NCBI GenBank assembly: GCA_050951405.1
Contig: JBMNIZ010000008.1
Location: 5,986-69,985, forward strand
Direction of reading: 5' to 3'
Length of the DNA: 64,000 nucleotides
DNA from: Bacillota bacterium
GTDB taxonomy: Bacteria; Bacillota; DULZ01
Part shown: one piece after another, positions 41,695-62,986 of the stretch
How positions within the stretch are numbered: the stretch's first letter is position 1
Layout of the letters: every line of letters starts with the position of its first letter
Position numbers and translations under genes: made by a program
The notes under the pieces: model-generated
What the model was told of the DNA's origin: nothing
Databases searched by the model: none
Seen by the model: only the letters and a program-made list of their open reading frames with translations

Positions 41695-41699
41695 CGAAC

Positions 41700-41900: not shown

Positions 41901-41902
41901 CC

Positions 41903-41935: not shown

Positions 41936-41948
41936 ACAGATTCCTTCT

Positions 41949-42778: not shown

Positions 42779-42787
42779 CCCGCCGGC

Positions 42788-43198
42788 TTATTTTTTTTGA
42801 TCCAGAAAAACTCCTTCCGGCACAATGGCTGCCGCCTGGTATGCACCCAAGCTTCTTCTGCTCTGCTGCAGGGCGGCAAGCTTTTCAGCTATCTCCGATC
42901 TCTGCCGCAGCAGCTCCAAAATGAGTTCCCGATGCAGCTCCTGGATGGCCGCTAAAAGTTCCTGCTGCTCTTCGTGCCAGGCCTGGCCTTTTTCCTCTCC
43001 CCCATGGGGAAAAGCCCTTCTTCTTTCTTCCAGGCGGTCCACTTGCTCCATCAAACGATCCGTCTCCGCCAGTAATTGGCTGAACAAGTCCATCTTCCCC
43101 TGCCGGAAAGCCTCCTTCTGCTTTTCCAGGCTTAAGAGCATTTCCTGCAAGAGGGCGTTTTTTTCTTCCTGCAGCCTTTTTCCCTCATTTTTCGTCAT
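42788..43198 (-). CDS. Coiled-coil protein, possible FliT/FlgN-like export chaperone
   Basis: 136 aa, heptad-rich, located between fliD and fliS. Confidence 0.35.
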   Translation of the reverse strand: MTKNEGKRLQEEKNALLQEMLLSLEKQKEAFRQGKMDLFSQLLAETDRLMEQVDRLEERRRAFPHGGEEKGQAWHEEQQELLAAIQELHRELILELLRQRSEIAEKLAALQQSRRSLGAYQAAAIVPEGVFLDQKK

Positions 43199-43213
43199 AA
43201 AGGCTTCTCCCCA

Positions 43214-44881: not shown

Positions 44882-44929
44882 AGCTAAACACCCTCTTTTT
44901 GTTCCGTGATTGCTCTTTATGCTAATTCT

Positions 44930-45289
44930 CTAGATCCTTTCATCCACCATGATCCCGGCCAGCTCCCAGAGCTTGGCCACCATGTCCAGCAGTTTTTCCG
45001 GTGGGATTTCCCGGATCAGTTCCCCGCTTTCCCGGTCAAAAACCTTCACCATGATCTCGTGGGTGGCCTCATGGATGGAAAATTCAAAACGGGTGAAAGT
45101 CCCTTCCAAAGATTTGTTGGCATGTTCAATGGCCCGGATGATCTCTCTTTCGCTGGGGGGCTTCTCTCCGGCTGTGCTTTCCCTCTTTTGGGCCCTTTCC
45201 GCTACTTTCAGATTTTTCTCGCCGGCAGCAGCCTTCAGCCGGGACTGGTCCATGCCCATGCTTCCGGTAGTGACAGGATTGATCTGCAT
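44930..45289 (-). CDS. flaG: Flagellar protein FlaG
   Basis: 119 aa; FlaG family C-terminus. Confidence 0.8.
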   Translation of the reverse strand: MQINPVTTGSMGMDQSRLKAAAGEKNLKVAERAQKRESTAGEKPPSEREIIRAIEHANKSLEGTFTRFEFSIHEATHEIMVKVFDRESGELIREIPPEKLLDMVAKLWELAGIMVDERI

Positions 45290-45326
45290 TTACCTCCCCC
45301 CTTACCTCAGGGTCTTTCTATCAACT

Positions 45327-45355
45327 ATATCGGCAGTTTTCCTGCGAAACTTTAG
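45327..45355 (-). promoter_or_regulatory. Sigma-28 (SigD/FliA) promoter for flaG-fliD-...-fliS: TAAA-N16-GCCGATAT
   Basis: Minus-strand CTAAAGTTTCGCAGGAAAACTGCCGATATAG ~35 nt upstream of the flaG RBS. Confidence 0.6.
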
Positions 45356-45463
45356 CATGTAAGCGTTGGAAAAAACCTTTTCCTCATCAAGCCGTGGTTT
45401 GACAAAAAAATCAGGTGGAAACCGGATGCCATTTCCCTTCCACAAAATAAAAACGACCAGGCC

Positions 45464-45490
45464 TAAAGTTTCCAGCCCGTCAGCCGATAA
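45464..45490 (+). promoter_or_regulatory. Sigma-28 promoter for flagellin: TAAA-N15-GCCGATAA
   Basis: CTAAAGTTTCCAGCCCGTCAGCCGATAAT ~95 nt upstream of fliC start; leader contains several GGA motifs. Confidence 0.7.
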
Positions 45491-45585
45491 TATTAAATGA
45501 GAAGTGAAATCCTTCCCGCGGCCGCAAAGAAGGATGAACTTAAAGGCAAGGAAGCCAAAATTAATTTCAAGGAGGAATGGGAAAA

Positions 45586-46743
45586 TTGATTATCAATCAC
45601 AACATTTCTGCTCTAAACACCTATCGCCAACTATCGTCAAACAACGTACTGCAAAACAAGAGCTTGGAAAAGCTCTCCTCGGGTTTTCGCATCAACCGGG
45701 CCGGGGATGATGCGGCTGGTCTGGCCATCTCGGAAAAAATGCGGGGGCAGATCAGAGGCTTAAACCAAGCCTCCAGAAACGCCCAGGATGGGATTTCCCT
45801 CATCCAAACTGCAGAAGGCGCATTAAATGAAACTCATGCCATCCTGCAGAGAATGAGGGAGCTGGCAGTACAAGCATCTACCGATACCAATACCAACGAG
45901 GACAGAGCGGAGATTCAAAAAGAAATTGACCAATTGGCCACGGAAATTACCAGAATCGCGGATACTACTCAATTTAACACCATGAATCTGTTAAATGGGG
46001 ACTTCAAGGGCAAAGTATTTCATATCGGCGCCAACGCACAGCAGAATGCTTCCATTGAAATAGCCGGCATGAGGGCTTACGAATTAGGGGTTGGAACCGA
46101 AGGCTCTGATGGATCGGGAGCAGCTGCGTCAGGCACCATTCAAGAAATCACCATTACCGCCAATAGTGTAGGCTCACAATATAACAAAACAATAAAAATT
46201 GAACAAGGCACAGGTAATAATGCTGAAACAGCGATAACAGAAACTGATGACGAAATAATCATTACATTAGGAACGGATTCGGAGGGCGCCCCATTAACAG
46301 TAACGCAAGATGAGATAGTTAATTTAATCAACGGGCTTGGCACCTACACGGCTACAACTACCAATCCAACCGGTTCAATTACGACAGGTGAGGCCCAAAT
46401 AAGCGGTGGCATAGATGCCGGTGAGCCGGTACCTGCCAAAGGTATTGATGTGTCTACCCAAGCTGCGGCCGATGCGGCAATTTCCATCATCGATACGGCG
46501 ATAAGCACTGTTTCCTCCGAGCGCGCCAAGCTGGGTGCTATGCAAAACCGCTTGGAGCATACCATTGCCAACCTGACCACTGCCGCCGAAAACCTGCAGG
46601 CTTCCGAATCCAGAATCAGGGATGTGGACATGGCCAAAGAAATGATGGAGTTCACCAAGATGAACATCCTCAGCCAAGCGGCCACGGCCATGCTGGCCCA
46701 GGCCAACCAGCAGCCCCAGATGGTCCTGCAGCTGCTCCGGTAA
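45586..46743 (+). CDS. fliC: Flagellin (TTG start giving MIINHNISALNT; the ORF track starts 9 nt earlier at ATG 45577)
   Basis: Conserved N- and C-terminal D0/D1 domains; AGGAGG 10 nt upstream of the TTG; central region 46140-46340 is AT-rich and Thr-rich. Confidence 0.9.
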   Translation: MIINHNISALNTYRQLSSNNVLQNKSLEKLSSGFRINRAGDDAAGLAISEKMRGQIRGLNQASRNAQDGISLIQTAEGALNETHAILQRMRELAVQASTDTNTNEDRAEIQKEIDQLATEITRIADTTQFNTMNLLNGDFKGKVFHIGANAQQNASIEIAGMRAYELGVGTEGSDGSGAAASGTIQEITITANSVGSQYNKTIKIEQGTGNNAETAITETDDEIIITLGTDSEGAPLTVTQDEIVNLINGLGTYTATTTNPTGSITTGEAQISGGIDAGEPVPAKGIDVSTQAAADAAISIIDTAISTVSSERAKLGAMQNRLEHTIANLTTAAENLQASESRIRDVDMAKEMMEFTKMNILSQAATAMLAQANQQPQMVLQLLR

Positions 46744-46756
46744 CTCTGCCGCAAAA

Positions 46757-46779
46757 AGAGCCGGGAATTCCCCGGCTCT
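46757..46779. repeat. 23-bp palindrome AGAGCCGGGAATTCCCCGGCTCT (fliC terminator stem); left copy of the IS target-site duplication
   Basis: Identical 23-mer recurs at 48490..48512 on the other side of the IS, there followed by the terminator T-run. Confidence 0.7.
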
Positions 46780-48489
46780 CAGACTGTAGACAAAGTCTTA
46801 TGAAATGCAAACCTTGGCCGATCCTTGGTTTGCATTTTCATTTATACATTCCATAATTGCCGTGCGCAAAAAATCTTTGGCAAAAGTGTAAAAAAGCCAG
46901 TAATTGCAGGCATTTTCAGCCCTTTTAACGAAATTATATTATGGGAAAAACCAATACCGCCGGGGTGATGAAAATGCTTGCGAAAAAAGACCGTGAAGCT
47001 GTTAACCAAATGGAAATTGTTTGCATAGACAGCCTGGTTCCGGAAAACCATCTGCTTAGAGCCGTCCAGGAGAGTATTGACTTTCAGCTTCATCTATGAT
47101 GAAGTGAAAGACCTGTATTCAGAAAACCATGGCCGTCCCAGTGTAGATCCGGTTGTTCTAATTAAGCTGTTGATCCTGCAGGCACTCTATGGCATCCGTT
47201 CCATGCGGCAGACCATAGAAGAGGTAAAGGTAAACGTCGCTTACCGCTGGTTTCTGGGATATGGCTTGCAGGAGCAGATCCCTCACTTCTCTACCTTTGG
47301 CAAGAATTACGTGAGACGGTTTCAGGAAAGCGACATTTTTGAAAAAATCTTTGCGCGTGTTCTCGAAGGAAGCCATCAACTGCGGGTTTCTCAACACCAG
47401 CGCCATTTTCATTGATGCCACTCATGTCAAAGCCAGCGCCAATAAGAAGAAGTACATCAAAAAGATGGTCAGGCATCGTGTACATAAATACAAGCGTGAT
47501 TTGCTTTATGAAATTAACGAGGATCGGAAAGCCCATGGCAAGGAACCGTTTGCTGATGATGAGGACGGAGGCAATGATTCCGGAGATGAAGGAGGCACCC
47601 CGGCTGACAGCGGCAAGGAACGAGAAGTCATAGAAAGTACAACAGATCCGGAAAGCGGCATGTTCTACAAGAGTGAAAAAGAGAAATGCTTTGCCTATAC
47701 TGTAACCGTTGCCTGTGATCAGAACAACTTTGTCCTGGGATTAAAAGCAGCTCCCGGCAATGTTCACGACAGCCAGGTTTTCTCCGATGTCTTCCAGCCA
47801 GTCATTGAGACAGCACCCCGAAATCGAGTCTGTAGTTCCAGGATTCCGGATACAAAACCCCGGCCATCTGCCGGGAGATAGTCGAAGCCGGCAAAGACCC
47901 CATCATGCCCTACAAGCGCCCCATGACAAAGAAAGGCTATTTCAGAAAACATGAATTTGTTTATGACGAATACTACGACTGCTACATTTGCCCCAATAAC
48001 CAGATCTTAAAGTACAGCACCACCAACCGCAACGGTTACCGCGAATACAAAAGTGATCCCAAGGTCTGCATCGGCTGTGAGCATAGAAAGAAGTGTACAC
48101 AGAGCAAAAACTTTACCAAAGTGGTTACCCGTCATGTATGGCAGTCCTATACAGAAATAGCCGAAGACCTCAGGCATACCGAACGGGGAAAAGAACTTTA
48201 TCGTAAGCGCGGCGAGACAATTGAGCGTGTCTTTGCCGATGCGAAAGAAAAACACGGGATGCGTTTCACGCAGCTCCGGGGCTTGAGAAAAGTACAACAC
48301 TATCTCACGCTTCTTTTTGCATGCATGAATCTGAAAAAGCTGGCCATGTGGAAGCGGAAACAACGGACATTACCGCCCACAACCTCCCCGCAGCAGGGAG
48401 GTACTCTCTAACATTTCAGCTATTTTATGTTTAAAAGTAAAATGGCCTCTAGGTTTTGCTTCCTAAAGGCCATTTTTGTCTACAGTCTG
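46780..48489 (+). mobile_element. IS1182-family insertion sequence (1710 bp) inserted in the fliC / SLH-gene bidirectional terminator
   Basis: 15-bp terminal inverted repeats CAGACTGTAGACAAA; flanked by 23-bp direct duplication; internal DDE transposase with IS1182-type N-terminus (LVPENHLLRAVQESIDFSFIYDEV) and C-terminus (ERVFADAKEKHGMRFTQLRGLRKV). Confidence 0.75.
46941..48411 (+). pseudogene. IS1182-family transposase, interrupted by at least four frameshifts
   Basis: Continuous homology in alternating frames (46941-, 47077-, 47339-, 47905-); breaks near 47085, 47400, 47830 and 47890. Confidence 0.7.
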
Positions 48490-48512
48490 AGAGCCGGGAA
48501 TTCCCCGGCTCT
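48490..48512. repeat. Right copy of 23-bp palindromic target-site duplication, followed by the T-run of the original terminator
   Basis: AGAGCCGGGAATTCCCCGGCTCT + TTTTTCTTTTC. Confidence 0.7.
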
Positions 48513-48709
48513 TTTTCTTTTCTCTTTTTTCTCCTTTCTCCCGTCATTGTATTTTTATTGTCATAATGCTCCTGGAAGCCTAAACTATGGCGATGGATGG
48601 AAGCTTCCAATCACCGGTTTTTTCACAAAAATCACAACACCGCTCACATCCCGCCTCATTTCCCTTCATGGAAATGATCCTGGATGGACGGAGAAAGATT
48701 CCTTTTTGC

Positions 48710-50230
48710 TTACCGGAAATGGAGGAGGCGGTCCCGGTACTCACTTTTCATCTCCCGCTGCATGTAGTTGATAAAGCGCTGGAGAAAAACGGCGGCCTCG
48801 GCCCGGGACATGGTTTCTCCCGGAAGAACCCGGCCGAAAGCGTCACCGCTGACCAGCCCCATTTCCGCAGCCACATAAATGGCGTCCCTGGCCCAGTAAG
48901 GGATCTCCTGATCATCCCGGAAAGGGGTGGGGCTGGGGTTAAAGGGAGCCAAGCCTTCAAAACCCAGGGCCCGGATCAGGGCGGTGATGGCCTGGGCCCT
49001 GGTCAAGACTCCACCGGGATCAAAACTGCCCGGCCTGGTCCCTTTGATCACACCCGCCTGGCTGACCGCCTTTATTTCCTGATAATAGGGATGATCCACC
49101 CTCACATCCACAAAAAGCGAAATCTCCTTCTCTTCCTCCCGGTTGAATCGGTCAAAGGGATTGAGCGCAGTTTGCCGGCTCTCTTTGGCTGTCTCCATGC
49201 CCGTCAGGCGGGCCAAAGCCCGGGCAAATTCGCCTCGAGTCATGGGCAAGCGGGGTCCAAAGTACTCCCCCCGGGCCGGAAAGGCTTCCAAACTGGCCAG
49301 CTCCAAGATGGGCCCTTCCGCCCAGTGCCCGGAAATATCCCTGAAGAGAGGTACCGGCAGCCTCCTCTGGCTGGGCAGGGTGGTCAAGCGGGTGCTCCCG
49401 CTGACCTGTTTCCTGCTCCGGCCCTTCTCTAGGAAACCTTCTGCATCAAAGCGGGGCAAATTGGCCTCATAGCGCAGAATGCCCTCTTCCTGGATGCTTT
49501 CCAAGTAGCCCCCGGCAAAACTGATGGGAGTGGGTTCATTGGGCTGGTACGATAGCTCCCGGGAACGGTTAACGGAAATGTGGAGCTGGAAAGTACCCGA
49601 CCACTCCTGGGGATATCTTTCCTTATCTTTGATCAGATCCCCGGTAAAGCGGATAATCCCATCCACCCTCTGGGTTTCGGTGCTCCCCCAGGCATGGTCA
49701 TAGCCCACCGTATCCCCCCAGGTCTCCACCACAACAGTGGCCTGATCCTTGCCCAAAACATAAGTCTTCCGCCCGGACCAGTTCCCGCTGAAATAGGCCA
49801 CCGCCGGCTGGTGATCAACCAGAGTGGATTTGGAAAACTGGTAATCCTTCAGGGTGTAGCGATCCTTCCCTACGGTCACGGTTTCGCTGATCCGGTCCAC
49901 CGAAGTCACATAGACAGTCTGCTTGTCCTCCATTTTCTTCTCTTCACTGCTGCTGAAGGAAACAGTACGATTTAATTTAATGGAACCGGTACTGTCGCTG
50001 AGCTTGTAACTCAAGTTGGTCTGATAGCCCCCTCCCCGGCCGGCCCGCTGGCTTTTCTGCACGGTACCGGTCAGGATCACCGGCTCTCCGGTGAGAAAAG
50101 TCAGCTCTCGGTATTCCCTTTCGTTGGAGATGCCTTCTTCCAGATGGAGCAGGTATTCTGTTCCCAAGGCAGGCCCGGCCCCAAGCCAGAACAGGAGCAA
50201 ACTGCAGAAAAAAATTACCGCTTTTCTCAT
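48710..50230 (-). CDS. Secreted cell-wall protein with three C-terminal S-layer-homology (SLH) domains
   Basis: 506 aa; signal peptide MRKAVIFFCSLLLFWLGAGPALG; SLH repeats FRDISGHWAEGPI..., FVDVRVDHPYYQEIKAVSQAGVIKG..., FRDDQEIPYWARDAIYVAAEMGLVSG... Confidence 0.75.
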   Translation of the reverse strand: MRKAVIFFCSLLLFWLGAGPALGTEYLLHLEEGISNEREYRELTFLTGEPVILTGTVQKSQRAGRGGGYQTNLSYKLSDSTGSIKLNRTVSFSSSEEKKMEDKQTVYVTSVDRISETVTVGKDRYTLKDYQFSKSTLVDHQPAVAYFSGNWSGRKTYVLGKDQATVVVETWGDTVGYDHAWGSTETQRVDGIIRFTGDLIKDKERYPQEWSGTFQLHISVNRSRELSYQPNEPTPISFAGGYLESIQEEGILRYEANLPRFDAEGFLEKGRSRKQVSGSTRLTTLPSQRRLPVPLFRDISGHWAEGPILELASLEAFPARGEYFGPRLPMTRGEFARALARLTGMETAKESRQTALNPFDRFNREEEKEISLFVDVRVDHPYYQEIKAVSQAGVIKGTRPGSFDPGGVLTRAQAITALIRALGFEGLAPFNPSPTPFRDDQEIPYWARDAIYVAAEMGLVSGDAFGRVLPGETMSRAEAAVFLQRFINYMQREMKSEYRDRLLHFR

Positions 50231-50281
50231 GGCGAAACCTCCAGAGAATTCATTCCCACCCCGAAATCCCGATCAAAACCA

Positions 50282-52795
50282 TTAATAAGCTATCTTGAAC
50301 ACCAAATAAGCTGTCGTCAGGTCGTGAACAAAGTAAACTGTATCCCCCGGCTGCAGCTCTTCCGCCCGGATGAAAGAATGATCGTCAAAGACCAGGGCTT
50401 TCTCCAAATCCAAGACCAAATCGTCCGGGTTGGGAGTCCAGCGTTGATAGCCCTCGCTCCAGTCTTGAATTCGCTCCAGCCTGACCGTAGCGGTAACAGG
50501 GTCCGCTTCTTTCACCCGGCCGATGCTGGTCTTCATTACCGCCGCAAGGTTCCGGTGGAGGGACAAGGCCAGGATGTTCCCTTCCTCATCGGTGATCGCC
50601 AGCACATACCGCCTTTTATATTCCTCGCTCCAGCGGCTTTCAGCCAGATCCTCAGGGGAGATGAAACGGGCTGTTCGCACCGCATCCAGAATAAGGCCGG
50701 CCCTGGTCAGGACAAGCTGCTGGGTCCGGCGGCTTCGCGCCACCCGTTCCCATTGATTGTTTTGCAGATAATCGGCAGAGCTGATTTCCAGGGATGATTT
50801 TTCCACCCGATCCAGGCGGCCCCGGTAGACTTGCCAAGCCTTGGGAAGAAAATTCCGGGAAAGCATGATGAGAACGGATTCCCCGCCGGAAATCCTCTCC
50901 CCTTCCAGAAAAAGGTGTTCTCCTTGGTTGAAGTCAGCCGGATCCACCAGCTTACCGTCTTTGACAGCGATAGTCCCGGCTCTGAAGGAAAATATTTCTT
51001 CCCGATCGGACAGGGTTAACTGCTGCAAGGGCCAGGAAATCCGGTCAATAAAACCGTTGTAGCTTTCAGCCGGCCCCTCCCCCACTTTGAGCTTCAGCCC
51101 CTGGGGACTGCCGTAAACGGAAGAGAGGGCCAGATAGACTTCCGCACCTAACCGGCTTTTCCGCAATTCCTCCAGGGTCAGCTCTTTTTCTCCCAGGTAT
51201 AATTCCGCTCCCGGCGCCAATTCGATCAATTCCAAGTCCCGGCGGGGATACCAAAGACCGTAAAAATATTCCTCGGGGCCGCTCAGGCTGAGCCTTGATC
51301 CTTCCGGATAAACCCCTTCCAGGCGGCCCCTGACCAGTAAGTCCACCGCCCCTAGGGAAGGAGATACTATAATTCTCGCCAGCTCTCCCCTATCCAGGTC
51401 CGCTATCTCCAATTTCACCCGGTCCCCGACGTTCAGATCATCCAATCCCCGGATCCGACCCTCTCTTACCACTTGGGTGCCGGCCGTCAGCCGGTAGACT
51501 TTTTCCTGGCCGTTTTCCAAAAGATATAAGCGGTCCCCGTCCAGGGACTTGACCCGGCCGGTCTTCACCCCGGAACGGGCTGCGGCATAACCGGGCAAGA
51601 GGGAACCCAGGGTCCCTTCCACCGCCACTACCGCATTATCCTGGACCTTGACCCGGATTTCCTGCCCCACAAGCAGATCTTCCAGCCCTGCCGGGCGCCC
51701 GTCGATGGTCACGGAAAGGCGGGCATTAAGGGGAAGGATTCTCTCCCGCCCGGAGGAGATTTCCTTAAAAAAGAGAGTTTTTTGATCGGCACTGATGCCG
51801 GACAGCAGTCCCTCCAGCCAACCGCTTGCGGCCGGGAAAACAGCGGCAAAAGCAACCGAACCGGTTGGATCGAGGAAAAGCTCCAGCCGGTCGCCGGTTT
51901 TCAAAGCAGAAGCCCGGCTCAAACCTCCGTTTTTCAGGACCGGAAAACCGGCTCCCTCCGGAAAGAGAACCCGGATATATTCCAGTCCGTCTAATTCCAC
52001 TTCCAACTCCGTCCAACTGCCGGCCTGCCAAAAACTGCGCTGTCCCAGCACTCGGCCGGAAAGAAAATCCCAGCCCCGCCTGGGCCCGGCCAGAGGAGAA
52101 ATTCGATCTAAAATAGCCGACATTTCTCCCCGGGTCAGATGGCCCCGCGGGTGAAAAGTACCGTCCCGGTAACCGCTCATGATCTTTTGCTGGAGGAGGG
52201 GCTCAATGGCCGTTATATAGCTGGGCTTAAAATCCTGCCAGTCGGAAAAAGAATAGACGGACCGGATCCGGTCTCCATAAACCGGCGGGATCTCCAGGGC
52301 CCGAGCAAGCCAGAAGGCCGCCTCCTGGCGCTGGGCGGGCTTGGTCCTGTTCTGATCAAAAGCCCCCTGTTCTTCCGGTAAAATGATCCCCCGATTTTTG
52401 GCCACTTGAATGTAGCCCAAGGACCAAAGTCCGGCGGCGCTAGCGGGCGGCTGCGGCAACCCTGCTCCTATCAACTCGCCGGCTCTCTGGGCTTCCGCCT
52501 CCAGGCCGGCAATCCGCAGGACCAGGGCCAGGGCCTCTTCTTTGGTCAAAAGGCCGTTGGGCTGGAATTTACCGCCCCCCACACCCTGAATCACTCCCTG
52601 GGCGGCCATCCGATAAATGGGAGCAGCGGCCCAGTGGCCTTTGATGTCCTGGAAATCCATCTGGCGGTAAAGCTGGGCGGCATAGGGAGCCTCCCGGTAA
52701 ACGGGAATCTCCGCCCCCCAGGCGCCGGAAAAGACCGGCAAAAGCAGCAGGAAGATGTTGATGATGAAGACAGTGAAGATGGCTTTTCTTTTCAT
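50282..52795 (-). CDS. Cell-wall protein with three N-terminal SLH domains and a large C-terminal beta-rich domain
   Basis: Signal peptide MKRKAIFTVFIINIFLLLLPVFSGAWGAE; SLH repeats FQDIKGHWAAAPIYRMAAQGVIQG..., ...WSLGYIQVAKNRGII..., FSDWQDFKPSYITAIEPLLQQKIMSGYRDGTFHP... Confidence 0.75.
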   Translation of the reverse strand: MKRKAIFTVFIINIFLLLLPVFSGAWGAEIPVYREAPYAAQLYRQMDFQDIKGHWAAAPIYRMAAQGVIQGVGGGKFQPNGLLTKEEALALVLRIAGLEAEAQRAGELIGAGLPQPPASAAGLWSLGYIQVAKNRGIILPEEQGAFDQNRTKPAQRQEAAFWLARALEIPPVYGDRIRSVYSFSDWQDFKPSYITAIEPLLQQKIMSGYRDGTFHPRGHLTRGEMSAILDRISPLAGPRRGWDFLSGRVLGQRSFWQAGSWTELEVELDGLEYIRVLFPEGAGFPVLKNGGLSRASALKTGDRLELFLDPTGSVAFAAVFPAASGWLEGLLSGISADQKTLFFKEISSGRERILPLNARLSVTIDGRPAGLEDLLVGQEIRVKVQDNAVVAVEGTLGSLLPGYAAARSGVKTGRVKSLDGDRLYLLENGQEKVYRLTAGTQVVREGRIRGLDDLNVGDRVKLEIADLDRGELARIIVSPSLGAVDLLVRGRLEGVYPEGSRLSLSGPEEYFYGLWYPRRDLELIELAPGAELYLGEKELTLEELRKSRLGAEVYLALSSVYGSPQGLKLKVGEGPAESYNGFIDRISWPLQQLTLSDREEIFSFRAGTIAVKDGKLVDPADFNQGEHLFLEGERISGGESVLIMLSRNFLPKAWQVYRGRLDRVEKSSLEISSADYLQNNQWERVARSRRTQQLVLTRAGLILDAVRTARFISPEDLAESRWSEEYKRRYVLAITDEEGNILALSLHRNLAAVMKTSIGRVKEADPVTATVRLERIQDWSEGYQRWTPNPDDLVLDLEKALVFDDHSFIRAEELQPGDTVYFVHDLTTAYLVFKIAY

Positions 52796-53007
52796 GGGCC
52801 TTTTCGCCTCCAATTTGCGGTTACCAAAACCCTATCGGGGAGCGATGCGGTCATCGCCCCTTGCGGGCAAGGACGGAACCCTGCCCCTACAAATTTTTAC
52901 GTAATTTGCGGGATCCATGTAGGGGCCGGCGCCCACGCCGGCTCGCTTTAGGACCCGAAAGGATGCCCCCAAATTCCCACGACTGTATTCCCACATCCGA
53001 CGAACGT

Positions 53008-55296
53008 TCATTGGGCTACCAACATCACCCAAATGGGGCGCATGGTTTTCAGGGTTAAACGGGGCAGGTACCGGTCCTTGACCGCAGCCGCCGCTTCCCA
53101 CCGGCCTGCGTCATCATTGTATAGATAAAGAACTGCCTTTTCTCCCGGGCCCATCAAAGACGGCGCATAATCCATGGACAGGGTGATTTCCTGGTAGAAC
53201 AGCCCCTGGGGCAGGATTTCCTTGTCTTCGAACAGCTGCCAGCCCACGCTGTAAACCGGGCTGATGATCCGGCTGCCCCGGGGCAGCTTTTTCAAAGCCC
53301 TTTCCGCCTCCGCCTGTCCCAGGTCCCGGATCAGGATTTCCCCATAGGCGGAGGAACTGCCGGTCAAGACCGGCAAGAGGCTGTAAGGAGGCACTTCCAA
53401 CACCAGCTTGCCGGTATCGATGGTGAAAGACCAGACCGCCTGCTGCAAAGCATCCCGGCTGATCCGCACCGTCTTCAACGGTATTTTTTGGTAAGCAGGA
53501 GGAGTGAAGTCCACCTGATAAGCGGCCAAGGCCAAGGCCCGGGCAGAGGAAATCACCGCCGTCAACCGTCCCGTCTCGGACTGGACCAGCATCTCTTCCG
53601 GCTCCAGCTGGGGAACTGCCTTTTCGCCCCTGTCCGTCCTGGCATTGTCTTCATAGCTGAAATCTGAAACTCCCAGCTCATTGACCGCCCTCACCTTGAA
53701 ATAATAACGAGTGTTGGGCTGAAGACCCGTGGCATAATAAACTGTCCGGATGGTCTGGTCCAGGAAACGATAAGGGCCGCTGCGGGAATCGCTGATATAA
53801 ATTTCATAGTAATTGGCGAACTCCACCGGGGGCCACTGAATCTTAATAGTCTCGTGGTCCGCCCGGTCCGTCTCCAGCCAGTCCGGTGCCTCCGGCGCCA
53901 TACGGGGGCGCAGATAGAGAAAACCCTGGGGCAGGGCGGCCCAACCCCCGTCGGGGTTTCTCACCCTTACTTCCTGCCAACCCGGTTCACCGGGAGGAGT
54001 AAGAAAAGTCAGGGTCTGGGCATCCTGGACCTGCACCTCCTGGGCCGGCCTGCCTCCCACGAAAACAAGAGCGCCTTCTTGCAATCTTTCGCCCCGCAGG
54101 GTGACTCTCGTCCTTCCCGTACTTTCACCCCGATCGGGATCCAGGCCGTAGATGACGGGAAGTTCTATAGCATAGTAAGTAAATCCTTTCGCCAAAGTGG
54201 CCGCTCCCTGATCCGGGTTGATGACGGTGACATCTTTGGGGCCTTCCTCTCCTGGAGGCGTCAGGGCTCTAATGGTTTGATAATTCTCCACCACCACTTC
54301 CCTGGCGGGCACTCCGCCAATGTAGACCAGGGCCCCCGGCCGGAAATCGTTCCCGCTGATGGTAATAGCCGTTTCCCCCACTGCAGGACCTTTGTTTGGT
54401 TCCACCCGAAAAATCTGCGGCTCGCTGTCAGGCTCTTCATAGGTAAAAGCGGCGGTCAATGTATGGGTTCCCCCGTCGTAATTGGTCACTGTGACATCTT
54501 TCGGTCCGGGGGAGTGGGGCGGGATTTTCGCCCGGATGGTGTTCCCATCGATGACTTCCACGGACAAGGCCGTAATCCCGCCAAAATAGACCTCCGCCTG
54601 GTCACGAAAATCTTCACCGATGATCGTGACGATGATATGACCGATCACAGGCCCCCGGGAAGGCGATAGTTCCTTGACTACCGGCCGGCTGTCAGGAAGC
54701 CGGTAACGAAAGCCCTGTTTCAGCAAGGCTTCGGCTCCATCCGGGTTGACCAGTCTCACATCAAAGTAGCCGGTCCTCTCCTGGGCCGGTACTTTGACCC
54801 AAACCCGCTCCTGGCTTTCCACCCGCAGGTCTTGAGCCGGTACTTCCACCTCACCGAAGAAAACCCTGGCCCCTTCCCGGAAATCTTCTCCCAAGAGATA
54901 AGCCTCCGTACCGGCCACCCCTTGGCTGGGGTTGATGGAGACGATTTTTGGATTGGAAGTAACGTAGGTAAAAGCGTTTTTCAGAGTAAAGCTGCCCAAA
55001 TGTTCTCCGGTATTCATCACGGTCACATCGGCGGGGCCTTCCCTCCCCGGCGGGGTGATCACCCTGAGCTCCTTGTAACTGAGGAGCTCCACCGCTGGAG
55101 CCGGGATCCCGTTGAAAAACACCTTGATTCCTTCCCGGAAATCCTTACCGTGGATCACTACCGGAGTCCCCCCGTCCACCGGCCCCCGATCCGGTTCCAG
55201 GGAGAAAACCACCGGTTCGCTTTGGGGGGCCAAATATTCCACTCCCTGGGGCAGATGGGCGTTTCCCCCCGTCATCGTTGACCACGATAAGGTCAA
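53008..55296 (-). CDS. C-terminal part of a giant IPT/TIG-repeat surface protein (IPT repeats, then a fibronectin type III domain and a C-terminal domain); out of frame with 55145..58858 at a poly-C tract
   Basis: Repeats of ~85 aa with PxxGPxxGGTxVTIxGxxF signature. FN3-like YYEIYISDSRSGPYRF...TRYYFKVRAVNELG. Its N-terminus (NAHLPQGVEYLAPQSEP) continues the repeat that the upstream ORF ends in. Confidence 0.7.
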   Translation of the reverse strand: MTLSWSTMTGGNAHLPQGVEYLAPQSEPVVFSLEPDRGPVDGGTPVVIHGKDFREGIKVFFNGIPAPAVELLSYKELRVITPPGREGPADVTVMNTGEHLGSFTLKNAFTYVTSNPKIVSINPSQGVAGTEAYLLGEDFREGARVFFGEVEVPAQDLRVESQERVWVKVPAQERTGYFDVRLVNPDGAEALLKQGFRYRLPDSRPVVKELSPSRGPVIGHIIVTIIGEDFRDQAEVYFGGITALSVEVIDGNTIRAKIPPHSPGPKDVTVTNYDGGTHTLTAAFTYEEPDSEPQIFRVEPNKGPAVGETAITISGNDFRPGALVYIGGVPAREVVVENYQTIRALTPPGEEGPKDVTVINPDQGAATLAKGFTYYAIELPVIYGLDPDRGESTGRTRVTLRGERLQEGALVFVGGRPAQEVQVQDAQTLTFLTPPGEPGWQEVRVRNPDGGWAALPQGFLYLRPRMAPEAPDWLETDRADHETIKIQWPPVEFANYYEIYISDSRSGPYRFLDQTIRTVYYATGLQPNTRYYFKVRAVNELGVSDFSYEDNARTDRGEKAVPQLEPEEMLVQSETGRLTAVISSARALALAAYQVDFTPPAYQKIPLKTVRISRDALQQAVWSFTIDTGKLVLEVPPYSLLPVLTGSSSAYGEILIRDLGQAEAERALKKLPRGSRIISPVYSVGWQLFEDKEILPQGLFYQEITLSMDYAPSLMGPGEKAVLYLYNDDAGRWEAAAAVKDRYLPRLTLKTMRPIWVMLVAQ

Positions 55297-58200
55297 CTTT
55301 GCCCGGTGGGTGGGGAGGAGTGACGGCGATGATTTTTCCTTCGCTCAGCAAATCCACTTGCGGGGAAGCCAGACCGTCAAAGTAAACTTTTACTCCTTCC
55401 CGGAAATCCGCACCCAAGATGGTCACCGGCTGTCCTCCCGCAGCGGGAACCTGAGTGGGATCCACTTGAAAAATCTGGGGCTTGCTGGCAGGATGTTTAT
55501 AATTAAAAGCTTTGGGTAAGATGGCCGTCCCCCCGTCGGGATTGATCACCCGCACATCGGCGGGACCCACCTCCCCAGGGGGAGTAGTGGCATAAATCTT
55601 GTCATGGTATACCTGCAAGTCAAAGGCCTCTTCATCGCCGATAAAGACCCGGGCTCCAGGCCAAAAGTCGCTGCCGGTAATCACCACCCGGGTTCCTCCC
55701 GCCTTGGGCCCTAATTCCGGGAAAATACCCGTAATCCTGGGCTTGGTCAAAGGATCTTTATACTCAAAAGCTTCCGGCGCCACCGCTGTTCCCGTATCCT
55801 CCAGGTTGCTGACCGTCACATCCACCCGTCCCGGAGGATGGGGAGGAGCAGTGACCCGGATCTCCTCCGGGCTGATGACTTTGACACTTTCCGCCCTTTC
55901 CCAGCCAAAGTGAACCACGGCATCGGGAGCAAAGCCCTCCCCCCGGATAAAGACCTCTGTACCTCCCTTGGTCTCCCCGCTGTCAGGAAAAACTCGATGA
56001 ATGACTACCTCCTGCCGGGGTTCTTGATATAAGAAGCCCTCCCAGGAGGCGCTGCCCCCGTCCACATTCTCCACCCGAACTGTTACTTCCCCGGCCGCTC
56101 CTGCCGGCAGCCGGGCCTTGATCAGGTTCTCATGGAAAACCTGGCAGTCGGCCGCACTGCTACCAAAGACGACGGAAGCTCCCGGGTAAAACTGGCTCCC
56201 GGTAATGGTGATGATGTTGCCCCCACCAGTGGAGCCTTTGGCGGGAGACAGCTTCTCGATGGTGGGATTGGAATAATAGAAAAAAGCGTTCTCCAAAGTG
56301 GCGCTCTTGCCGATGGGGCTGACCACCGTCACCGGCTGGTAACCCGGTAATCCCGGAGGGGATACAACCTTAATCCTGGTCTCATCTTCCACCACCACTT
56401 CAGCGGCGGGCACTTCCCCAATGAAAACCGCGGAACCGGCCACAAAATTCATTCCTAAAATAAGGAAGGCGGTGCCGCCGATCACCGGCCCCCGGGCCGG
56501 GTCTCCATTCTCCAGGATAACCCGGTCAATGATTGGGTCCACGCTGGGTATGAGATATTGAAAACCATTTCGGTAAATATATTCCCCATACCGGTTTGCC
56601 ACCACCACATTTTTCCAGCCTGGGGTGAATCTGGGGGTAACGGCGGTCAAGGCCGTGCCGAAGGAATCCGCTTCCAATTCCACTTCCGTGGCCTCATAGC
56701 GAATGATGTTTTCCGGATTGGAGGCATCTTCCAGGTAAATCCAGATCAGGGTATCCTCATCGAAGTTGGCACCGGTAATCCTAATCCTGGTTCCCCCGGC
56801 CACCGGACCGAATTCCGGAGTTACACTGGTAATGATCATGCTCGTTCCCCGGTAAACGAAACCGTTTTTCAAAATGGCCTGCCCCAAGTCCTGGTTGATG
56901 ACGATCACATCCACCGGACCGGCTACGGAAGCAGGAGGCGTGACCGCCCTGATGGAGCCGGTTTCCACGCTCTGGACCTGGGCCTGGTTGGCCGGATCAA
57001 TTTTACCCAAGTAGACCTTCAAGCCGCTGCGAAAATCGACCCCTTCGATTCTGATGATGCTGCCGCCGGCCAGGGGACCGGTATTGTCTCCCGTCTCTTC
57101 ATTGAAAACTCTATCCACCCGGGGCTGACTTTCGGGAATCCTGTAAATAAAGCCTCCCGGCAGGGTATATCTTTCCAGGGAAATCACTTCTCCCTGGCCA
57201 TCCAAGCGCCTGATTTCGATCATCACATCCTGGGCCGTTTCCAGCTCTCCCTCTTCCACATAACCTCCCGGGGTAACGGCGGTAATGGTGTTCGTGTCCA
57301 AAACTTCCACTTCCCCGGCCTCGTTGCCGCCGATGAAGAGCCCCACTTGTGCCTGCTGGGGAACTTCCTCCGGCAGGGGGAAATTAACTCCGAACACAGT
57401 GATGGGAGTCCCTCCCTCCACCGTCCCCCGATCGGGAGTGACGCTGGTAATGCGGACCATTTTTTCCGGGATTTTATAGGTGAAGCCGTCAGGCACGGTC
57501 ACTGTACCCCCGTCAGGGTTGGTGATGGTGACATCCTTGGGGCCGGCAGTATGTTCGGGGCTGATGACCACCATCTGAGTGGGGGCCACGAAAGGTTCTC
57601 CGTCCACGTCCTTTTTAATTTCGGCTGTCTTATTGCCGATTTTTACCACCGGCAGAGAACCGTCAACGGCTATCCGAAAATCTTCCCCCCGGATGGTCAC
57701 TTCCGTTCCCCCTTTCGTGCTGCCCACATTGGGAGTGATTTCATGAACCTGGGGCTGGCTCTTCCCGGTAGTAAAAGTAAAACCGCCCACTACCGTCACT
57801 CCTTGTTCAGGGTCAGCGGGATTTCGCACCGTGACATCGGCTGGACCTAAATTGCCTTCGATAATTTTTACCAGCAGAGTACCTTCGGCTATTTTGGTAG
57901 CATCAACAATTTCCACCGGAAACCCGCCGATGAGCACCTGGGGCTGATGGTATTGTTCAGGATCAAAAATCTTGTCAAAATTAGTGCCCTTGATGGTGAT
58001 CAGATCGCCCACCCAGCCATAGTTGGGAGTGATGCTGGAAATGCTGGGCATGATAATATAGCGAAAAGCACCGGGCAGGGTATCCTGGGCTCCATCGGGA
58101 TTGATGACGGTTACGTCTTTGATCTCCTCCACAGTGCCCGGAGGCACCACGGCCTTGATTTCCCTTTCATGGATGTAGGTGACGCCGCCGGCAAAATTGG

Positions 58201-58858
58201 CTCCCACCCTCACTTGGGCAGCCCGGTCAAACTGGTTCCCCTCTTTGCCGGTAATGGTAATCACCGTTCCACCGGCGCCTTTTTGCGGGACCACGCTTTC
58301 CAAAAGAACGGTGCTTTTTTCGTAGGCAAAAGCACCTTCCAAGGAAAAACTACCCCCGTCCGGATTCACCACCTGGACGGTTTTTGCCCCCAGGCTCCCT
58401 CCCGGGGTCACCGCCCTGACCTGACCGGCATTCAGCCATAAAACAGACCGGGCCGCTTTGCCGTCGATATAAACTTGAATTCCCGGCTGGAACTGTTCTC
58501 CCAGCAATTCTATCTCTGTGCCTCCCACCGAACTGCCCCGGGGAGGATTAACGCTGTCAATCCGGGGAGAGCTAAAAAAAGCATAGCTCTCCGCCAAGAC
58601 TGCCCACTGACCGTCCGGATTTTCCACCCGCACATCAACAGGGCTCCCCTGGGAAGGATGGGGAGGCGTTTTGACCAAGATTTTATCTTTTTGCACCTCT
58701 ATCACTTCGCCGGCCAAACCGCCAAAAGTTACCTTGGTTTCGCCGACGGATCCCACAACAAAATTACTTCCGTAAATGGTGACGAGAGTGCCTCCGCTGC
58801 TGGGGCCCCGCTGAGGACTCAAGCCGTTCAAAACCGGTACCGGCCCTTCCTGGGCCAA
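55145..58858 (-). CDS. N-terminal part of the giant IPT/TIG-repeat surface protein (at least 13 IPT repeats). The likely true start is TTG 58936, which gives a lipoprotein-type signal peptide interrupted by an in-frame TGA at 58874..58876
   Basis: Upstream in frame: GGAGAGAGGG-TTG MRKKFTAIVLIFSFLLGCFP-TGA-IIGSSLAQEGPVPV. The joined 53008..58936 reading frame is ~1,975 codons. Confidence 0.7.
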   Translation of the reverse strand: MAQEGPVPVLNGLSPQRGPSSGGTLVTIYGSNFVVGSVGETKVTFGGLAGEVIEVQKDKILVKTPPHPSQGSPVDVRVENPDGQWAVLAESYAFFSSPRIDSVNPPRGSSVGGTEIELLGEQFQPGIQVYIDGKAARSVLWLNAGQVRAVTPGGSLGAKTVQVVNPDGGSFSLEGAFAYEKSTVLLESVVPQKGAGGTVITITGKEGNQFDRAAQVRVGANFAGGVTYIHEREIKAVVPPGTVEEIKDVTVINPDGAQDTLPGAFRYIIMPSISSITPNYGWVGDLITIKGTNFDKIFDPEQYHQPQVLIGGFPVEIVDATKIAEGTLLVKIIEGNLGPADVTVRNPADPEQGVTVVGGFTFTTGKSQPQVHEITPNVGSTKGGTEVTIRGEDFRIAVDGSLPVVKIGNKTAEIKKDVDGEPFVAPTQMVVISPEHTAGPKDVTITNPDGGTVTVPDGFTYKIPEKMVRITSVTPDRGTVEGGTPITVFGVNFPLPEEVPQQAQVGLFIGGNEAGEVEVLDTNTITAVTPGGYVEEGELETAQDVMIEIRRLDGQGEVISLERYTLPGGFIYRIPESQPRVDRVFNEETGDNTGPLAGGSIIRIEGVDFRSGLKVYLGKIDPANQAQVQSVETGSIRAVTPPASVAGPVDVIVINQDLGQAILKNGFVYRGTSMIITSVTPEFGPVAGGTRIRITGANFDEDTLIWIYLEDASNPENIIRYEATEVELEADSFGTALTAVTPRFTPGWKNVVVANRYGEYIYRNGFQYLIPSVDPIIDRVILENGDPARGPVIGGTAFLILGMNFVAGSAVFIGEVPAAEVVVEDETRIKVVSPPGLPGYQPVTVVSPIGKSATLENAFFYYSNPTIEKLSPAKGSTGGGNIITITGSQFYPGASVVFGSSAADCQVFHENLIKARLPAGAAGEVTVRVENVDGGSASWEGFLYQEPRQEVVIHRVFPDSGETKGGTEVFIRGEGFAPDAVVHFGWERAESVKVISPEEIRVTAPPHPPGRVDVTVSNLEDTGTAVAPEAFEYKDPLTKPRITGIFPELGPKAGGTRVVITGSDFWPGARVFIGDEEAFDLQVYHDKIYATTPPGEVGPADVRVINPDGGTAILPKAFNYKHPASKPQIFQVDPTQVPAAGGQPVTILGADFREGVKVYFDGLASPQVDLLSEGKIIAVTPPHPPGKVDLIVVNDDGGKRPSAPGSGIFGPPKRTGGFLPGTGSGAGGRGDSGSDPR

Positions 58859-58962
58859 AGAACTACCGATTATTCAAGGGAAACATCCCAACAGAAAAGA
58901 AAAAATCAAGACTATTGCTGTAAACTTTTTTCTCAAAACCCTCTCTCCTTCCCAAACCCAGA

Positions 58963-59003
58963 AAACTGCTACCCCCAAACCCTTGCTGGCGGGTAGCAGT
59001 TTA
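58963..59003. terminator. Rho-independent terminator after csrA (AAACTGCTACCC...GGGTAGCAGTTTT), overlapping the csrA stop
   Basis: 10-bp stem, T-run on the transcribed (minus) strand. Confidence 0.65.
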
Positions 59004-59252
59004 CCGGCCCTGATTCCCTTCCCCGGCCGGCGGGCGCAAACTTTCCAATCCCGCCAGCAATTGGGGGCTGATTCCCGCCGACTCCTGGTTTTGCCTTTTG
59101 ATGGCCTCATAAACCTCCAGGCGGTGTACGGAAACATGGGCAGGGGCTTCGATGCCTATTTTCACCTTGTCTCCCTCAACAGAGATCACGGTCAAAAAAA
59201 TGTCTTCTCCAATGATCAAAGTTTCCTTGGGTTTTCGCGTTAAAACCAGCAT
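59001..59252 (-). CDS. csrA: Carbon storage regulator CsrA (flagellin translation repressor)
   Basis: MLVLTRKPKETLIIGEDIFLTVISVEGDKVKIGIEAPAHVSVHR. Confidence 0.9.
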   Translation of the reverse strand: MLVLTRKPKETLIIGEDIFLTVISVEGDKVKIGIEAPAHVSVHRLEVYEAIKRQNQESAGISPQLLAGLESLRPPAGEGNQGR

Positions 59253-59255
59253 TTT

Positions 59256-59720
59256 CTATCCCCCTGCCCCGCCGGCCTGGGAGCCCTGATTGGTAAAAAG
59301 CAAGTGTTTCGTGTGGTAATCGGTTCCGTAGAGGATATACTGCTCACCCCGACGGCTGGCCAGGTTAATCACCAAAGGTCCGATTAAATTGGCGGTCATA
59401 TCTCGCACATCAGCGGAAGGAACGGTGACAATCACATAGACTGCCACCTGCTCCCTTTTTTCAACGGCCAACTTCTTCCTGATCTCTTCATCCAATTCCA
59501 CGGTATAAGAGGGAAAGAAAAGAAATGGATCGGTGAGAAGAAAAGCCACTTCCCCGTCCTCAACAGACTGCAGCCAGTAAAAAGCCGGGTTGTTTTCCAG
59601 GGGAAGCACCAGGTAATCCTTCAGGTGCTCAAAGCCAAAAAGACCTCCGGCAAAATGAATGAGGTCTTCTTTCTCATATGCCAACAGGCCGAAACGGCTT
59701 GTTTCGATCTGCAATTGCAA
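59256..59720 (-). CDS. fliW: Flagellar assembly factor FliW (CsrA antagonist)
   Basis: 154 aa, FliW family; immediately upstream of csrA. Confidence 0.9.
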   Translation of the reverse strand: MQLQIETSRFGLLAYEKEDLIHFAGGLFGFEHLKDYLVLPLENNPAFYWLQSVEDGEVAFLLTDPFLFFPSYTVELDEEIRKKLAVEKREQVAVYVIVTVPSADVRDMTANLIGPLVINLASRRGEQYILYGTDYHTKHLLFTNQGSQAGGAGG

Positions 59721-62638: not shown

Positions 62639-62935
62639 TTATTCCTTTTCAGCTCGCAGGGCATCCAGTATTTTTTGCGCCAAATGCTCCGGTGCCACCC
62701 GGTAAGTCTGGTCCGCCAGCTGCTTTTTGATTTCTGCAATTAAAGCCTCGCGCACTTCCGGCAATTCTTCCACGGCCCGGGCCAATTCCCGGACCTTTTG
62801 CGCCTGTGCGGAAAGTTCCACTTTATCCCCGGCGTAGGATCTGATCTCCTTTTTTTCCTGACTTGCTTGGGAGGCCTGGTAAATCTTGAAAGGATTAACC
62901 GGCGGTTGTCCGGTTATTTTCATTATTTCCACCAC
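62639..62935 (-). CDS. flgM: Anti-sigma-28 factor FlgM
   Basis: 98 aa; C-terminal VREALIAEIKKQLADQTYRVAPEHLAQKIL. Confidence 0.8.
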   Translation of the reverse strand: MVEIMKITGQPPVNPFKIYQASQASQEKKEIRSYAGDKVELSAQAQKVRELARAVEELPEVREALIAEIKKQLADQTYRVAPEHLAQKILDALRAEKE

Positions 62936-62957: not shown

Positions 62958-62986
62958 ATATCGGCAAAAGAGGCAACATACTTTAG
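62958..62986 (-). promoter_or_regulatory. Sigma-28 promoter for flgM-flgN-flgK-flgL-fliW-csrA: TAAA-N16-GCCGATAT
   Basis: Minus-strand CTAAAGTATGTTGCCTCTTTTGCCGATATTAT, ~25 nt upstream of flgM. Confidence 0.6.

Follow-up and report, generated by a model that had tools for sequence, protein, structure and literature searches.

A conserved three-gene surface cassette behind csrA in late flagellar loci of an uncultured Bacillota clade

Three genes for surface proteins lie between csrA and the flagellin gene in a 64,000-nucleotide (nt) stretch of DNA from a Bacillota bacterium (contig JBMNIZ010000008.1 of assembly GCA_050951405.1, positions 5,986 to 69,985), and this whole stretch is called the window here. 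One gene encodes a giant protein with IPT/TIG repeats and an FN3 domain, and the other two encode surface-layer homology (SLH) proteins, SLH-N and SLH-C, in which the SLH repeats are N-terminal and C-terminal, respectively. The trio is probably a conserved surface cassette that was relocated once into a late flagellar operon and was then inherited vertically, giving a wall-anchored fibre expressed together with the late flagellar genes. The evidence comes from the order of genes behind csrA in relatives, from related cassettes at other loci in Clostridia and from sigma-28-type promoter matches.

The cassette would comprise a secreted giant rod of about 13–22 IPT/TIG repeats followed by an FN3 domain and a conserved C-terminal domain, a "middle" protein that carries SLH repeats in this clade, and a protein of about 500 residues in which a predicted 12-stranded beta-barrel is followed by an SLH trimer at the C-terminus. 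Its relocation would have taken place in the common ancestor of an uncultured digester clade that includes Bacillota bacterium LX-D, followed by vertical inheritance. The trio would be transcribed by read-through of the sigma-28-driven flgM–csrA operon, and transcription would end at the terminator after the SLH-C gene. By binding a pyruvylated wall polymer, both SLH proteins would keep the giant rod, which has no anchor, at the cell surface. As an outcome, the fibre would be made alongside the late flagellar proteins and could act in adhesion, cell-cell contact or surface motility. It is proposed, with moderate confidence, that the cassette builds a wall-anchored fibre that serves motile cells in adhesion or in their behaviour at surfaces.

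The trio behind csrA in the window and in its relatives

Nearly all genes of the window are on the minus strand, and gene order is given here in the direction of transcription. The order is cheB, flgM, flgN, flgK, flgL, fliW, csrA, the giant IPT/TIG gene, SLH-N, SLH-C, an IS1182-like insertion sequence (IS) and the flagellin gene on the plus strand, beyond which lie flaG, fliD, a FliT-like gene, a second FlaG-like gene and fliS. The window also contains the remainder of a Bacillus-type fla/che cluster, and the gene for the FliA/WhiG sigma-28 factor is part of it. A sequence-only reading of the window had noted that the IS, the two SLH proteins and the giant protein separate fliW–csrA from flagellin, and the genes were found where it had placed them. 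Its comparison with Bacillus-type loci, in which hag directly follows csrA, held in the outgroups: flagellin comes after csrA in L009 (a Clostridia metagenome-assembled genome, MAG) and L010 (Paenibacillus). These outgroups were obtained from a scan of genome contigs with FliW, which gave distant relatives only (37–42% identity).

The same reading had taken the region for an inserted island and the csrA–flagellin gap for a hotspot of accessory surface genes. On such a view, the trio would be a recently acquired variable set of genes, perhaps carried by the IS. The broken csrA–flagellin adjacency, the IS next to the trio and a somewhat raised GC content of the region (0.56–0.59) would fit this explanation. 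However, the contigs of full-length SLH-N orthologues, which were found in a few uncultured lineages at 41–46% identity, show the TIG giant, SLH-N and SLH-C in the same order after csrA in five lineages, namely the window species, L012/L013, L015/L016, L017 and L023. The Clostridia MAG from a biogas fermenter (L012/L013) has flgM-flgN-flgK-flgL-fliW-csrA followed by the TIG giant (1803 residues), SLH-N (849) and SLH-C (515). A Bacillota MAG (L015/L016) has the same order up to the trio (1792, 837 and 508 residues), with fliD directly behind it, and a metagenome contig (L017) has the same order from fliW onwards (1834, 858 and 513 residues). In Bacillota bacterium LX-D (L023), fliW-csrA and the trio (2269, 824 and 498 residues) are followed on the same strand by flagellin and then by flaG-fliD-fliT-flaG-fliS-flgB and further genes. 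The gaps within the trio are 14–85 nt in the relatives, and a terminator hairpin is present 3' of SLH-C in every lineage.

The trio has diverged about as far as the flagellar proteins (41–62% versus 36–64% identity). Compared with the window, L012, L015 and L017 show 41% identity for the TIG giant, 41–46% for SLH-N and 59–62% for SLH-C, and 54–55% for FlgK, 58–62% for FlgL, 59–64% for FliW, 47–55% for CsrA, 36–46% for FlgM and 39–40% for FlgN. The trio of LX-D is 36% (TIG), 32% (SLH-N) and 55% (SLH-C) identical to that of the window. The FN3 domain is the best conserved part of the giant protein (55–71% identity within the clade). What comes next after SLH-C differs in each lineage: the IS and an inverted flagellin gene in the window, flagellin in the same orientation in LX-D, fliD in L015, a Uma2-family gene and a transporter gene in L012, and a toxin-antitoxin pair in L017. 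Flagellin is absent from the locus in L012, L015 and L017. The LX-D order, in which csrA, the trio, same-strand flagellin, flaG and fliD follow one another, is the probable ancestral state.

A comparison of codon usage between the supposed island and its flanks, which the sequence-only reading had proposed as a check, revealed no anomaly. The content of G and C at third codon positions (GC3) is 0.62–0.69 in the trio versus 0.58–0.71 in the flanking flagellar genes, and the codon-usage distance of the trio (0.08–0.13) is as low as that of any flanking gene. The higher total GC of the trio arises at codon positions 1 and 2 and hence reflects amino-acid composition.

The IS also fails to delimit an island. 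IS1182-family elements insert into palindromic sequence with a long duplication. The element in the window resembles this family in its transposase with DUF772 and DDE_Tnp_1_6, its short terminal inverted repeats, its insertion into a palindrome and its long target duplication. Unlike an intact IS1182, the window copy no longer encodes an intact transposase, the gene being present as three broken open reading frames (ORFs); contig L018 carries an intact 505-residue transposase gene of this IS. An identical 23-nt palindrome (AGAGCCGGGAATTCCCCGGCTCT) stands on both sides of the IS, bordered by an A-run and a T-run on opposite sides. If the IS and one palindrome copy are removed, the flagellin and SLH-C genes, which are convergent, again have a bidirectional terminator between them. 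The palindromic hairpin was originally a terminator shared by these two genes. Because the duplicated terminator palindrome flanks the IS, the element is a simple late insertion into this shared hairpin and did not bring the trio. It lies entirely outside the trio, which has no flanking repeats of its own, so that it bounds nothing.

A second IS copy ends at window position 173 (terminal repeat 159–173), 3' of a molybdopterin oxidoreductase gene, and abuts another palindromic hairpin, AAAGGTTGC...GCAACCTTT (window 1–199). This suggests that the IS targets terminator hairpins, and it speaks further against the IS as a carrier of an island. L018 is identical to the window over 39577–52753 except within the IS, which differs by 89 substitutions and 10 inserted bases; every one of the 101 alignment columns that differ (window 46750–48500 versus L018 7174–8920) falls inside the element. 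The difference between the two copies may be real, or one of the assemblies may have taken the repeat from elsewhere among the copies.

Identical gene content and order in five lineages at 32–62% protein identity mean that the trio is ancestral to the clade and not a variable island; shared content in relatives is what the sequence-only reading had itself named as refuting an insertion. A recently acquired island is thus already refuted by synteny and is extremely improbable. The flagellin gene, rather than the trio, is probably the rearranged element. Flagellin and the IS form a compositionally odd stretch (GC 0.47–0.49), and the GC3 of flagellin is below that of its neighbours (Table 1).

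Cassettes at other loci and the link to sigma-28

A word-index search with the single N-domain of SLH-C missed known orthologues, and exhaustive and profile searches recovered the SLH-C family. The exhaustive search with the 277-residue N-domain gave 176 clusters at 50% identity, and the architecture of this domain plus SLH is present in all 111 full-length representatives listed; a metagenome scan with the same domain gave four loci only. Hosts found by profile search include Tepidibacter, Caminicella, Tepidanaerobacter, Crassaminicella, Proteiniborus, Defluviitalea, Thermotalea, Syntrophocurvum, Thermosyntropha and Syntrophomonas. Five genomes outside the clade were inspected (Crassaminicella thermophila, Ca. 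Syntrophocurvum alkaliphilum, a JGI MAG, Tepidanaerobacter sp. GT38 and Proteiniborus sp.), and in all five a TIG giant (1982–2119 residues) and a middle protein (552–980 residues) precede the SLH-C homologue. Common features of the giants are the TIG array (about 13–22 repeats in the relatives), FN3 and a tail motif at the C-terminus. The middle proteins of Crassaminicella and Syntrophocurvum (555 and 563 residues), which are without SLH, align to residues 325–833 of SLH-N with E values of 1e-36 to 1e-40. The cassette is an uncharacterised three-gene module that is widespread in Clostridia. Its loci in the five genomes are all non-flagellar, and four of them are near pyrG. Because the same cassette is present at other loci in Clostridia, the history of the csrA–flagellin gap would be one single relocation of a pre-existing conserved cassette, not an accretion of accessory genes.

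The neighbourhoods of these cassettes have further features in common. In L024, L025, L026 and L028, the cassette is near pyrG, which encodes CTP synthase, and additional SLH or Cu_amine_oxidN1 wall-protein genes are found nearby; two loci are also near a gene for a CtpB-like S41 peptidase. In four of the five loci, the giant gene is preceded by an extra gene (473–1016+ residues, weakly TIG-like or Big_5-like) that the flagellar-locus form lacks.

Exact sigma-28-type matches (TAAA-N-GCCGATA) occur three times in the window, where 0.18 would be expected, and they stand before flgM, flaG and flagellin. This supports the earlier placement of the trio between late operons driven by sigma-28. No sigma-28-type match was found directly before the giant gene or the trio in the window or the clade. 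The promoter of flgM likely drives flgM-flgN-flgK-flgL-fliW-csrA and, by read-through, the trio. At cassettes elsewhere, the strict pattern TAAA-N16-NCCGATA occurs exactly once each in L024, L026 and L027, where 0.07–0.09 would be expected per 21.5-kb locus, and each match is on the coding strand, 50–140 nt 5' of the first cassette gene or the giant gene. Sigma-28 (FliA/SigD) promoters are of the TAAA-N15/16-GCCGATAT type. A unique strict match is present at three of the four assessable loci; Syntrophocurvum was excluded from the count because the upstream end of its cassette is outside the stretch examined. In the simplest reading, the cassette would be a sigma-28-dependent unit that gave up its own promoter after relocation and now uses that of the flgM–csrA operon. 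Co-regulation with motility, which had been raised as a possibility from the window, is plausible and seems to gain independent support from the promoters at unlinked cassette copies; in the clade itself, no match before the trio supports it.

In the clade, the giant gene is on the strand of csrA and starts 52–143 nt beyond it, with a hairpin in between. Hairpins similar to that of the window are present in L015 (~4467–4496) and L023 (~580–606), with (C/U)AAGGG in the loop and U residues after it, and none was found behind csrA in L012 or L017. The hairpin might act as a leaky terminator or an attenuator in front of the giant gene. In the leader of this gene, GGA occurs only in the ribosome-binding site (RBS), and the hairpin loop is AAGGG. 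Binding of CsrA to this leader was not adopted as an explanation because the loops have AAGGG instead of GGA and are not conserved in L012 and L017.

The cassette could alternatively be a neutral passenger, that is, an ordinary cell-envelope operon with its own regulation that landed behind csrA by chance and has no tie to motility. Its usual surroundings in most Clostridia (pyrG, the S41 peptidase gene and other SLH genes rather than flagellar genes) are consistent with this, as are the hairpin with its U-run between csrA and the cassette, the lack of a sigma-28 match directly 5' of the cassette in the clade, and the interruption of the giant gene in the window species, whose flagellar genes are intact. 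However, the adjacency to csrA has been kept through divergence to 36–60% identity, whereas everything 3' of SLH-C has been reshuffled, and the gap behind csrA is merely 52 nt in LX-D. Moreover, the sole strict sigma-28 match is just 5' of the cassette in three loci outside the clade, and CmoA provides a precedent for a TIG protein in a flagellar regulon (PMC5072692). A passenger without any tie to motility is therefore unlikely, and relocation of a conserved cassette that is expressed with the late flagellar genes is the preferred explanation.

The relocation also bears on the control of flagellin. The flagellin leader has GGA motifs in a hairpin GGC-AAGGAA-GCC (45545–45556) and at the RBS AAGGAGG, which are similar to CsrA sites, and this arrangement resembles the two CsrA sites of Bacillus subtilis hag. 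The LX-D leader (L023 11547–11671) is arranged alike, with a sigma-28-type promoter, a hairpin GGC-AAGGA(A/U)-GCC and the RBS AAGGAGGA. As in the partner-switch locus of B. subtilis Hag, fliW and csrA are adjacent, and flagellin keeps a sigma-28-type promoter and GGA leader motifs. Unlike in B. subtilis, the trio is next after csrA, and flagellin is inverted (window), 3' of the trio (LX-D) or absent (L012, L015, L017). The conserved promoter and GGA motifs suggest that the FliW–CsrA–flagellin circuit is probably intact although flagellin is no longer next to csrA. Such a circuit would thus tolerate the separation of flagellin from csrA.

What had been supposed to be a strain-specific island becomes a widely conserved three-gene module of undescribed role, several hosts of which are cultured. 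The module is reproducibly linked to sigma-28-type promoters and, in one clade, has a fixed place inside what appears to be a late flagellar operon. If the sigma-28 link is true, Clostridia couple a giant surface fibre to motility, which bears on surface colonisation and on cell-cell contact in anaerobic digesters. No paper joining SLH proteins to csrA–fliW loci was found in a literature search.

The giant rod and its two SLH partners

The sequence-only reading had described a giant protein with TIG and FN3 domains. These domains are present, but in the window the gene consists of two overlapping ORFs (A and B), split by an additional G in a run of G, and its signal peptide contains an in-frame TGA. 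The TIG-domain reading passes between the two frames at a G6A3 tract. Three independent metagenome contigs that are otherwise 99.98% identical (L001, L002 and L003) have G5 where the window has G6, and the giant gene is a single ORF of 1949 residues in L001 and L003. L002 has another one-G deletion (G3 versus G4 elsewhere) at 54131, where its giant ORF is broken. Such single-G differences between assemblies of one species could stem from assembly error or be genuine slippage variants. Programmed frameshifting of the canonical −1 type at the G run was rejected, since a +1 shift is needed to join the frames.

At the 5' end of the gene, the RBS GGAAGGAGAGAGG precedes TTG 58936, the start of the signal peptide, and not the called start of the giant ORF. 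This TTG opens a well-formed signal peptide, which runs into the TGA (58876–58874) and is followed by IIGSSLA/QEG..., the beginning of ORF-A. All contigs of the species that span the site, which come from several samples, have the TGA, and the 1949 codons after it remain open in L001 and L003. Signal peptides are uninterrupted in the giant orthologues of L012, L015, L017 and L023. TGA serves as an ordinary stop in many genes of the window, and selenocysteine insertion or another programmed recoding was not adopted for this reason and because the residue would fall in the signal peptide. In the window species, an exported full-length giant protein could apparently be obtained only by read-through of the TGA. 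Together, the stop in the signal peptide and the frameshift in the window suggest that the fibre subunit has probably been lost in this species or is produced only at read-through level, with both SLH genes intact.

The intact giant protein has 18 TIG stretches and a single FN3 domain and ends in a C-terminal region of about 210–230 residues; its repeats also match the NCBIfam "choice-of-anchor Z" repeat. No family or solved relative of the C-terminal region was found in Pfam, NCBIfam and PDB sequence searches. Like fibrillar adhesins, this secreted protein has a long stalk of repeated domains (18 TIG and FN3, with signal peptides in the orthologues). However, the surface anchor and recognisable adhesive domain that also mark fibrillar adhesins were not found in it: there are zero SLH, sortase or membrane-anchor matches, and an adhesive domain was likewise not recognised. 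Because the giant protein has no anchor of its own, the two SLH proteins would anchor it in trans.

The opposite domain orders of the two SLH proteins, which had been noticed from the window alone, were confirmed (Table 1). Both score far above the PF00395 cut-off of 20.8 bits (SLH-N, 76.5 bits; SLH-C, 92.8 bits), and their three repeats are predicted to form an SLH pseudo-trimer of the type that binds pyruvylated wall polymer. SLH-N consists of a signal peptide, the SLH repeats and then about 600 residues without a Pfam family. SLH-C, the best conserved member of the trio, consists of a signal peptide, an N-domain of about 270 residues predicted to be a 12-stranded beta-barrel, and three SLH repeats. 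AlphaFold2 with a 118-sequence alignment modelled SLH-C with a pLDDT of 87 and a pTM of 0.81, and with a 3-sequence alignment the pLDDT was 36. In the former model, the N-domain (residues ~50–290) is predicted with high confidence as a closed 12-stranded barrel that resembles KdgM/NanC porins and autotransporter beta-domains. Pfam, NCBIfam and PDB sequence searches gave no family for this domain or for SLH-N outside its SLH repeats, and the PDB libraries yielded no solved structure that matches the two SLH-C domains together. Throughout the SLH-C family, the alternating strand faces of the barrel are mixed or polar rather than lipid-like, and the scanned ORFs of the window included no L/P-ring genes. 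For these reasons, the barrel is read as probably wall-associated rather than as an outer-membrane protein; an outer-membrane location was deemed unlikely from the strand composition and the flagellar gene set. The hosts of the barrel are regarded as single-membrane organisms.

The interruptions of the giant gene raise the question of whether the trio still works in the window species. The locus could be decaying, with the whole trio turning into pseudogenes that encode nothing functional. The in-frame TGA in all contigs, the extra G-run frameshift in the window with another in L002, and the degenerate IS copy are consistent with decay. However, the giant ORF is otherwise open for 1949 codons in L001 and L003, and single-base differences in G runs are typical of assembly errors too. 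SLH-N and SLH-C are intact and have signal peptides, and SLH-C is 85% identical to the protein of a sister species, which is 77–86% identical to the window species, and 55–62% identical to its orthologues in the clade, which indicates that it is still constrained. Decay of the whole trio is therefore improbable, even more so than the passenger explanation.

Several points nevertheless weigh against a relocated cassette that forms a wall-anchored fibre under sigma-28 control. At the promoters, Proteiniborus has only a near match (GTCGATAA), and no strict sigma-28 match was found before flgM or the trio in L012, L017 and L023. Transcription is assumed to read through the hairpin behind csrA, which has a U-run and could be a terminator; in addition, an independent promoter could lie in the 212 nt between the giant and SLH-N genes in the window. 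Errors in sequencing or assembly may account for the G-run differences. The stop in the signal peptide argues that the fibre is dispensable, at least in the window species. Finally, the barrel is a prediction, and its non-lipid-like faces leave its likely environment uncertain.

The closest known parallel to the giant protein is a flagellar-locus protein of Paenibacillus sp. NAIST15-1. CmoA is a secreted protein with a vWFA domain and eight TIG domains that is encoded 3' of flaG-fliD-fliS and probably co-transcribed with these genes; its induction parallels that of flagellar genes, and cells need it to move on hard agar (PMC5072692). Both are large secreted proteins with tandem IPT/TIG repeats encoded beside late flagellar genes. 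CmoA has 1064 residues and is characterised by apparent co-transcription with flaG/yvyC-fliD-fliS, flagellar-like induction and an extracellular role in flagellum-driven surface movement, and it is without FN3, the conserved C-terminal domain or partner SLH genes. In contrast, the giant protein has 18 TIG repeats (13–22 in relatives), is encoded behind csrA instead of fliS and is always accompanied by two partner genes, and no vWFA match was found in it or its orthologues. As judged from domain descriptions and not from alignment, the giant protein is not a member of the CmoA family, having no vWFA, another architecture and obligatory partners.

SLH proteins also take part in surface behaviour: SlhA is required for swarming in Paenibacillus alvei (PMC3776848). 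Like Sap of Bacillus anthracis and SpaA and SlhA of P. alvei, the two proteins described here carry SLH anchors. They differ from these three in that their non-SLH parts have no family match and that SLH-C joins a predicted 12-stranded beta-barrel to an SLH trimer. The combination of SLH and a (here predicted) beta-barrel in one chain is shared with outer-membrane tethers of the OmpM/SlpA type. However, the order is reversed in SLH-C, with the barrel N-terminal and SLH C-terminal, the strand faces are polar or mixed, and the hosts are regarded as single-membrane organisms. A family search found no sequence homology of the SLH-C barrel to the OmpM/SlpA, KdgM/NanC, autotransporter or intimin families. 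Intimin-type proteins combine a module that binds the wall with a 12-stranded barrel and an Ig-like rod. In the cassette, unlike in intimin, the Ig-like rod is a separate polypeptide.

These comparisons allow a further-reaching view, which is considered doubtful, at about the same level as decay of the trio. The cassette would be a new type of Gram-positive surface organelle, in which the wall-bound SLH-C barrel and the middle adaptor form a socket for a separately secreted Ig-like rod of about 2000 residues. It would be a split, membrane-free counterpart of intimin and autotransporters and would belong to the sigma-28 motility regulon across Clostridia, and swimming cells would use the long fibre to capture a partner or a surface. 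If this is true, contact with syntrophic partners would be possible in digester organisms. A barrel-plus-SLH protein as predicted here would be a new way to fix proteins to the Gram-positive wall.

Features of the window and minor observations

The positions of the features discussed above are collected in Table 1, together with the sigma-28 gene.

Table 1. Positions, strands and supporting evidence for genes and sequence elements of the window
Feature	Position	Strand	Evidence or remark
cheB	63983-63000	-	
Sigma-28-type promoter match (TAAAGT-N-GCCGATA) before flgM	62959-62985	-	
flgM	62935-62639	-	ORF 62639-62935 identified as FlgM
fliW	59256-59720	-	Pfam FliW 2.9e-40
csrA	59001-59252	-	Pfam CsrA 1e-23
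Hairpin and U-run directly 3' of the csrA stop	58962-58999	-	Sequence; fold -24.1 kcal/mol, z -1.7
Giant-gene TTG start and signal peptide MRKKFTAIVLIFSFLLGCFP, closed by in-frame TGA	58874-58936	-	Sequence
Giant gene ORF-A, 13 IPT/TIG repeats	55145-58858	-	Domain search
G6 run, frameshift site of the giant gene	55265-55270	-	Comparison with L001, L002, L003
Giant gene ORF-B, more TIG repeats, one FN3 and family-less C-terminal domain	53008-55296	-	
SLH-N (middle) protein gene, 837 residues	50282-52795	-	SLH at residues ~54-230
SLH-C protein gene, 506 residues	48710-50230	-	SLH at residues ~300-480
Right copy of duplicated terminator hairpin AGAGCCGGGAATTCCCCGGCTCT	48490-48512	.	Target-site duplication
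IS1182-like element	46780-48489	+	15-nt terminal inverted repeats CAGACTGTAGACAAA
IS1182-like transposase pieces	47077-48411	+	
Left copy of duplicated terminator hairpin	46757-46779	.	Target-site duplication
Flagellin gene	45577-46743	+	Inverted relative to the locus; GC3 0.53
Flagellin sigma-28-type promoter (45464-45489) and leader	45464-45576	+	
Sigma-28-type promoter match before flaG-fliD-fliS	45328-45354	-	
FliA/WhiG (sigma-28) sigma factor gene	20957-21664	-	TIGR02479 250.6 bits versus cut-off 189.6; Pfam sigma-70 r2, r3, r4

The fliD operon (42398–43198 and 44930–45289, minus strand) contains two FlaG-like genes (119 and 126 residues) and a FliT/FlgN-like gene, and the fliD operon of LX-D is arranged in the same way. 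The CsrA protein is identical on 10 metagenome and MAG contigs. An NCBI MAG of the window species has a flagellin variant of 385 residues, compared with 388 residues in the window, and both fall into a common 90% cluster.

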